Of a stretch of 42,338 bases of DNA, positions 13,069 to 13,345 are shown piece by piece (the stretch's first letter is position 1; each line of letters opens with the position of its first letter). This DNA is from a virus. The notes under the pieces are model-generated. The model was not told the origin of the DNA. It saw nothing but the letters and a program-made list of their open reading frames with translations, and ran no database searches. The stretch is from UHGV virus genome UHGV-0127092, one strand, 5' to 3'. The position numbers and the translations under genes are program-made.

Positions 13069-13093
13069 TAAAAAAACCCGCTTGATAGCGGGT
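13069..13093 (-). terminator. Rho-independent terminator (minus strand) between the small membrane ORF and the tape measure gene
   Basis: Minus-strand RNA ACCCGC-UAUCA-AGCGGGU followed by a U7 tract. Confidence 0.55.
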
Positions 13094-13099
13094 CGTGAG

Positions 13100-13288
13100 T
13101 TATAAACTGTCTTTTCTTTTGTGAGCGACTTGTATTAATAAATCTATTTGCGCATCTTGTTTTTTATTTATCTCTTTAAGGGCTTCAACTTGTTCATTTG
13201 CCCTTGTGCTAAACCGTATTAAATAAAAAATCACAATTAGATTTATCAACCAGCCGAATATTCCAAACACTACTACCAGTGGTTCCAT
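13100..13288 (-). CDS. Small hydrophobic (membrane) protein, moron inside the tail operon
   Basis: 62 aa; N-terminal half strongly hydrophobic (LVVVFGIFGWLINLIVIFYLI), charged C-terminus; AAGGAGG RBS upstream and intrinsic terminator downstream. Confidence 0.5.
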   Translation of the reverse strand: MEPLVVVFGIFGWLINLIVIFYLIRFSTRANEQVEALKEINKKQDAQIDLLIQVAHKRKDSL

Positions 13289-13345
13289 AACGCCTCCTTT
13301 ACTTAAGGAAAGAGCGTATCGCTACATTGAAGGCATGTGAAGCAA

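Follow-up and report, generated by a model that had tools for sequence, protein, structure and literature searches.

A near-identical copy of HK97 gene 15, the archetypal moron, in the tail operon of a lambdoid prophage

The genetic element that carries gene 15 of phage HK97 was reportedly the first to be called a moron, and the definition that Juhala et al. are said to have given in the year 2000 comprises DNA that is extra in comparison with related genomes, a deviating base composition, a terminator of its own and a promoter of its own. The function of the gene 15 product (gp15) in exclusion was reportedly described by Cumby et al. in 2012 (J Bacteriol 194:5012), a paper said to be the source behind the statements on gp15 in PMC3594210 and PMC10883804.

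According to the first of these two articles, a commentary by the authors themselves entitled "The moron comes of age," the term moron was initially applied to the element with HK97 gene 15, which is positioned between the tail chaperone and the tape measure genes, and gp15 is YebO-like in its N-terminal part and diverged at its C-terminus (PMC3594210). Part of the same article describes HK97 gp15 as a protein that is produced from the prophage, is located in the inner membrane and excludes HK97 and HK75 by blocking genome entry (PMC3594210). In passages of the second article, whether an incoming phage is sensitive to gp15 depends on the region of its tail tube or tape measure (PMC10883804). 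SieA of P22, Ltp of Streptococcus TP-J34 and Sie2009 of Lactococcus Tuc2009 are exclusion proteins that resemble gp15 in being prophage-expressed, membrane-located and able to block DNA entry after adsorption, and passages of the literature liken Ltp to gp15 further, namely in that the tape measure or tail region is where escape has been mapped (PMC10883804). However, we detected no sequence relationship between SieA, Ltp or Sie2009 and gp15; moreover, Ltp is a lipoprotein found in Gram-positive hosts, and the targets of SieA are phages with short tails.

Here, we analyze the 42,338-nucleotide virus genome UHGV-0127092 (the whole of this stretch is hereafter called the window), a lambdoid prophage with an integrase, an S24 repressor, O/P-like replication genes, NinB, NinG, Q, a lysis cassette and an HK97-type head and tail. 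Its tail operon contains a small membrane-protein gene that we regard, with a probability of roughly 90%, as the gene 15 moron in a lambdoid prophage akin to HK97, a moron whose role in superinfection exclusion is already known. The moron feature is real, and its kind is an already known one, namely the founding example of its class.

The cassette and its identity with HK97 gene 15

The tail genes considered here are all encoded on the minus strand, in the order tail tube (14025-14468), G, T frame, 62-aa open reading frame (ORF) and tape measure. The tail assembly chaperone G (13633-14016), the equivalent of HK97 gp13, is recognized by the Phage_TAC_1 (E = 5.5e-60) and phrog_344 profiles and is 93.7% identical in amino acid sequence to the HK97 protein. 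The T frame of the G-T frameshift product (13346-13624; Phage_tail_T, E = 1.5e-20) corresponds to the C-terminal part of HK97 gp14, which is annotated as a −1 frameshift product, and phrog_14766 covers both G and T. The stop codon of T marks the left edge of the moron. On its other side lies the gene for a tape measure protein of the HK97 gp16 type (9803-13057; 1084 aa; Pfam TMP_3, Phage_HK97_TLTM and Tape_meas_lam_C).

The gene 15 orthologue itself occupies positions 13100-13288 (minus strand) and encodes a YebO-family, single-pass inner-membrane protein of 62 aa (MEPLVVVFGIFGWLINLIVIFYLIRFSTRANEQVEALKEINKKQDAQIDLLIQVAHKRKDSL). A Shine-Dalgarno sequence, AAGGAGG, can be read at 13293-13299, 4 nt before the ATG at 13288, and the same motif is present in HK97 and in a prophage of Escherichia coli EC2001. 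Both the ORF between the T frame and the tape measure gene and the AAGGAGG ahead of it had been proposed by the initial annotation, and both were recovered at the positions given here (13100-13288 and 13299-13293, respectively); the interval of 13090-13345 that it assigned to the feature proved too short, since it cuts the terminator, whose hairpin and T-run reach position 13070.

The encoded protein is 95.2% identical to HK97 Gp15 (AAF31105.1), with which it shares 59 of 62 residues and its length of 62 aa, and 96.8% identical to the copies present in HK75, HK446, HK106, HK544, HK633, mEp234 and mEpX1. The window allele differs from the HK97 protein by three conservative substitutions (M14L, L24I and Q57K), which we infer to leave its function intact. 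The EC2001 prophage encodes a protein that is 100% identical to that of the window and carries the RefSeq name "YebO family protein." Profile searches matched the protein to phrog_5031 (E = 8e-29) and to the Pfam family YebO (PF13974; 38.9 bits as compared with a gathering cutoff of 27; E = 1e-9). In the GenBank record of HK97 (AF069529), the gene is labeled "15: Gp15, moron product." The correspondence extends beyond the coding region: the gene has gp14 (T) and the tape measure gene as its neighbors in both phages, the ribosome binding site is the same, the terminator is near-identical (it differs by one T), the 56-nt intergenic region upstream of the gene is identical, and the nucleotide identity to HK97 amounts to 97.8% from G/T across the moron up to where the tape measure gene begins. 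The phages as a whole differ, as the window prophage is a mosaic with a short tube protein, a diverged tape measure C-terminus and another early region.

The suggestion that the tail operon harbors a moron has thus turned out to point to a near-identical copy of HK97 gene 15, the archetype of these elements, and that of a possible superinfection-exclusion factor is supported by the 95.2% identity to HK97 Gp15 together with the published role of the latter. The toxin that had been considered as another option finds no such support: a complete holin, lysozyme and Rz cassette is located elsewhere (22298-23506), and the literature assigns exclusion to the protein, so that we rejected a toxin or holin reading of the ORF. 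Searches with the moron protein yielded no family at E <= 0.1 in PADLOC-DB 2.0 and no match in NCBIfam.

A strongly hydrophobic N-terminal half had been noted in the predicted protein; the hydrophobicity is evident, while its extent is smaller, covering about residues 4-24 and hence the N-terminal third (the mean Kyte-Doolittle value over 19 residues reaches up to 2.55, at residues 6-24). AlphaFold predicts one continuous helix spanning residues 2-61 with a mean pLDDT of 89. The membrane-spanning part is preceded by E2 and followed by R25 and R29, and from this the positive-inside rule predicts a cytoplasmic location for the conserved C-terminal helix.

The Pfam score above gathering and the RefSeq name raise the question of whether the moron product acts like the chromosomal YebO protein, namely as an envelope or stress membrane protein effecting lysogenic conversion, with phage exclusion absent or incidental. 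YebO of E. coli K-12 (b1825; PF13974) is 38% identical to the moron protein over 48 aa in the part proximal to the transmembrane segment, and in both proteins an N-terminal transmembrane helix is followed by an R-x-S-x-R-x-NEQ segment. However, YebO comprises 95 aa as compared with 62, it lacks the diverged C-terminal part of the phage protein with its invariant KQ-AQIDLLI--AH motif, a hallmark of the phage clade, and its gene is chromosomal, between yobF and mgrB, whereas the window gene resides in the tail operon of a prophage and is, as shown below, strictly linked to tape measure genes of the HK97 type. Furthermore, neither overexpression nor deletion of E. coli YebO affects HK97, whereas gp15 excludes it (PMC3594210). 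We consider a YebO-like role improbable on these grounds and retain exclusion as the function of the gene.

Relatives, homologues and linkage to the tape measure gene

The comparison with relatives lacking the insert, which the initial annotation had proposed, was carried out. In HK022, a gap of 19 nt separates the T-frame gene from the tape measure gene and there is no moron; HK022 is devoid of nucleotide similarity in this region, and the comparison is one of gene order only, from which the right-hand boundary of the moron cannot be fixed. Phage SaltyDalty and the ARL09/232 prophage encode G and T proteins that are 97-99% identical to those of the window, and the gp15 gene is absent from both; the similarity of their DNA to the window ends at position 13350, beyond which other genes follow. 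The gene is missing from HK022, SaltyDalty and ARL09/232 and so cannot be a tail component shared by all.

The slot between T and the tape measure gene (window 13058-13349; loci L004:3310-3645 and L002:3309-3602 of the relatives) is filled with unrelated cargo instead of gp15. In ARL09/232 this cargo encodes a zinc-ribbon protein of 111 aa and has a hairpin behind it, and in SaltyDalty it encodes a 97-aa protein that matches no family and does not resemble the zinc-ribbon protein. The presence of unrelated genes beside G and T proteins that are 97-99% identical indicates that the gp15 gene is dispensable for the building of the tail and that the slot serves as a cargo site. Among 5426 complete E. 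coli genomes, the moron is present in six, each time in this slot.

The moron ORF has a GC content of 31.7%, while T reaches 57.7% and the tape measure gene 50.8%; the corresponding GC3 values are 0.27, 0.60 and 0.46; along the DNA, the GC profile dips to 28-36% at the moron between flanks of 50-60%. The locus displays DNA that is extra in comparison with relatives, a deviating base composition and a terminator of its own, features by which morons are recognized.

A survey of 5.8 billion proteins yielded 35 clusters of homologues, mostly "YebO family" proteins of 59-62 aa from Citrobacter, Klebsiella and Raoultella, and PF13974 was found in all 34 database homologues with E <= 1e-15. In each of the 13 genetic contexts that we inspected, including those of Klebsiella phages whose copy is only 49% identical, the gene lies between T and a tape measure gene of the HK97_TLTM type, and in each lineage the cassette, consisting of ribosome binding site, ORF and hairpin terminator, directly precedes the conserved MATLRELI start of the latter. 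The KQ-AQIDLLI--AH motif of the C-terminal helix is invariant in the phage clade; an alignment that includes the Klebsiella phage copy of 45% identity retains 14 invariant columns, and 24 are invariant among the closer homologues. The ORF is under strong purifying selection, with a dN/dS ratio of 0.02 relative to a homologue of 83% identity (dN 0.079, dS saturated). All lineages with the moron (the window and loci L006, L011, L014 and L017) have a GC content of 31-35% and a GC3 of 0.20-0.34 in this gene, as compared with GC3 values of 0.36-0.69 in the flanking genes. Since the low values persist in all lineages despite saturated synonymous sites, the composition appears to be maintained and not to be merely the trace of a recent transfer.

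When pairwise identities of gp15 were compared with those of its neighbors, Spearman coefficients of 0.67 for the tape measure, 0.32 for the tube, 0.18 for T and −0.05 for G were obtained, figures that derive from 15 non-independent pairs of 6 lineages and carry no p-value. Loci L011 and L017 illustrate the trend: their tube, G and T proteins are 88-90% identical, as against 46% for gp15 and 57% for the tape measure. These comparisons are suggestive of a divergence of gp15 that tracks that of the tape measure more than that of G and T. Occupation of the same slot at identities from 98% down to 49%, GC3 values kept at 0.20-0.34 and a divergence that follows the tape measure lead us to propose, tentatively and with more doubt than conviction, that gp15 could be of old standing and closely tied, in various enterobacterial genera, to tape measure genes of the HK97 type, and not a recent add-on. 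If true, this would fit an exclusion specificity that co-evolves with the cognate tape measure, and the AT-richness of the gene would be selected instead of being a residue of transfer.

The same observations could be viewed as signs of a conserved structural or assembly accessory of the tail, for instance a membrane helper for the handling of the tape measure, given that none of the homologue contexts examined (83% to 49% identity) has the gene in another slot, and that its divergence tracks the tape measure with a coefficient of 0.67. However, HK022 and SaltyDalty are viable phages without the gene, and unrelated genes take its place beside the near-identical G and T proteins of SaltyDalty and ARL09/232. 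The terminator that the gene possesses ahead of the tape measure gene and its unusual GC content likewise argue against a tail accessory, a protein of the cytoplasmic membrane would be unexpected in a virion, and expression from the prophage together with an exclusion phenotype is published for HK97 gp15. An accessory role in the tail is accordingly very improbable, more so than a YebO-like one, and we keep to the exclusion factor in what follows.

Terminator, promoter and late transcription

The intrinsic terminator of the moron (13070-13094, minus strand) folds into a stem of 8 bp with a loop of 4 nt and ends in seven U residues. The stem spans positions 13094-13075 and the seven T residues positions 13076-13070, so that the first two T are paired within the stem. 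With a predicted folding energy of −13 kcal/mol (z = −4.0), it is more stable than each of 200 shuffled sequences. A putative terminator is annotated after gene 15 in the GenBank record of HK97 as well, and hairpins with other stem sequences occur at the same position in five diverged lineages (including L006, L011, L014 and L017). The good intrinsic terminator that had been predicted behind the ORF is thus borne out by the hairpin, the U-run and the folding score. It had also been described as abutting the start region of the tape measure gene; the nearness is correct, while the start codon at 13069 is not, and translation begins at the ATG at position 13057 (MATLRELI), a start that is kept in all relatives and annotated in HK97 and EC2001. 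This conserved start rules out the ATG at 13069, which touches the T-run.

A scan of the window with the sigma-70 consensus found no promoter at threshold for the moron cassette. A candidate for a weak sigma-70 promoter, TTCACA-N17-TACGCT, can be discerned below threshold at positions 13313-13341 (minus strand), where it matches the consensus at 8 of 12 positions. The homologous site just past the T stop matches at 9 of 12 positions in both L006 (TTCACA-17-TACGAT) and L011 (GTGACA-17-TAGGAT); no promoter-like site was found after the T stop in L014 or L017. Of a transcription unit belonging to the moron alone, the terminator is firm, and the promoter is only weakly visible as the 8/12 candidate. 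The promoter is the weakest link in the account of cassette transcription, and to judge from the sequence it is probably situated just after the T stop codon.

A gene for a Q-type late antiterminator (23606-24295, minus strand; Pfam Phage_antiter_Q, E = 2.7e-71) precedes the genes for lysis, terminase, head and tail, which share its strand. Its presence would explain how late transcription gets past the moron terminator and into the tape measure gene and the distal tail genes; such a read-through is what the biology of lambda would lead one to expect. In lambdoid phages, a late promoter and a short leader transcript are expected between the Q gene and the holin gene. Exactly between these two genes of the window, at positions 23517-23590 (minus strand), there is a 65-bit match to the Rfam family isrJ, an Hfq-binding sRNA.

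That the cassette and its terminator mainly serve as an attenuator setting the ratio of tube to tape measure protein, with an ORF that is incidental or encodes a toxin- or holin-like peptide, is the least probable of the explanations considered: hairpins do occur in all lineages just ahead of where the tape measure gene starts, even after the alternative cargo of ARL09/232, and several putative terminators lie within the HK97 late operon, but the ORF is under strong purifying selection with its invariant columns reaching as far as the Klebsiella phage copy, it is preceded by a strong Shine-Dalgarno sequence, HK022 manages without such an element, the Q antiterminator makes late transcription terminator-resistant, and the lysis cassette is located elsewhere.

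The prophage and the proposed mode of action of gp15

Positions 4669-22315 of the window are 97.7% identical to the E. coli EC2001 prophage, while positions 1-4668 and 22316-42338 have no match to that prophage save for two short pieces. The two prophages thus have the structural module in common, and they differ in their mosaic blocks at the tail-fibre end and throughout the region for lysis, early functions and immunity. Over its full length, the tape measure protein shares 90% of its residues with HK97 gp16, nearly all differences lying after about residue 1020: the first ~1020 residues are ~96% identical, and the last ~65 (window 9803-10000, minus strand) are unrelated to gp16, a pattern indicating a mosaic joint inside the gene near the C-terminus. 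The tail tube protein (14025-14468, minus strand) comprises 147 aa and is 94% identical to the first 145 of the 234 aa of HK97 gp12. It is devoid of the C-terminal ~88 aa of gp12, and the tubes of 234-236 aa found in related prophages give weak Pfam Ig_2/Ig_3 matches. For EC2001 and ARL09/232, RefSeq lists the short tube ORF among the pseudogenes, as incomplete; it is probably functional, because SaltyDalty, an isolated phage, carries the same short ORF.

Several other regions of the window attracted our attention. HK97 possesses further morons, gp22 and the reverse-oriented gp23, annotated between its I-like and J genes; the I-like (7407-7994) and J-like (3892-7353) ORFs of the window are 53 nt apart (7354-7406), hence these two morons are absent. 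Immediately downstream of the S24-type repressor gene (31173-31940), positions 32120-33528 (plus strand) contain a two-gene match to the PADLOC candidate system PDC-M63, namely a 159-aa DUF6932 protein (PDC-M63A; E = 1.8e-41) and a 310-aa protein (PDC-M63B; E = 6.4e-45); the position of this pair next to the repressor is reminiscent of rexAB in lambda. A 222-aa protein (34806-35474, plus strand), encoded close to the exonuclease VIII-like and RecT genes of the early-left region, gives a full-length match to Nmad5, the nucleotide modification associated domain 5 (E = 6e-31). A marginal Rfam match to isrB (36.5 bits, gathering score 35) lies at 36409-36506 (minus strand), just upstream of and overlapping the start of the gene for the 968-aa exonuclease VIII-like protein and on the opposite strand.

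In our working model, the rest of the late operon would be silent in a lysogen and the moron cassette would be transcribed alone, probably from the weak promoter just past the T stop codon, with the transcript ending at the terminator of the cassette. The 62-aa product would enter the inner membrane via its N-terminal helix, leaving the conserved polar C-terminal helix on the cytoplasmic side. There, it would act against superinfecting phages whose tail (tape measure or tube) is of the HK97 type and keep their DNA from crossing the inner membrane, a form of exclusion that would not involve the outer-membrane receptor and would be independent of repressor immunity. During lytic growth, RNA polymerase modified by Q would read through the terminator of the cassette, and the tape measure gene would still be expressed. 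The identity with HK97 gp15, the anatomy of the cassette, the helix prediction, the purifying selection and the absence of the gene from some relatives come from the present analysis. For the window allele, expression from the prophage, exclusion of HK97 and HK75, the block of DNA entry and the dependence on the tail region would follow by analogy with what is published for HK97 gp15. In view of the similarity of its tape measure (90% to gp16) and of its tube core (94% to gp12) to those of HK97, the prophage would be expected to exclude its own kind.

The value of the locus as a discovery is small, given that it is the founding phage moron with an exclusion function published in 2012. What we add is likewise small: the presence of the cassette in Citrobacter, Raoultella and Klebsiella relatives, the purifying selection, the low GC3 that has been kept, the divergence that tracks the tape measure and the alternative cargo. 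The assignment is of use for annotation, as the RefSeq label is just "YebO family protein" and PADLOC is silent on the gene. The angle that remains is a possible match in specificity between gp15 variants and the tape measure proteins to which they are linked; these variants, each with its own tape measure gene, constitute a ready panel for finding the molecular target of gp15, and the unrelated cargo genes of the same slot would be useful in that search as well. For the bacterial host, the identity of the gene with HK97 gene 15 means that lysogens of the window prophage would be expected to resist HK97-type phages at the step of DNA entry, independently of immunity.
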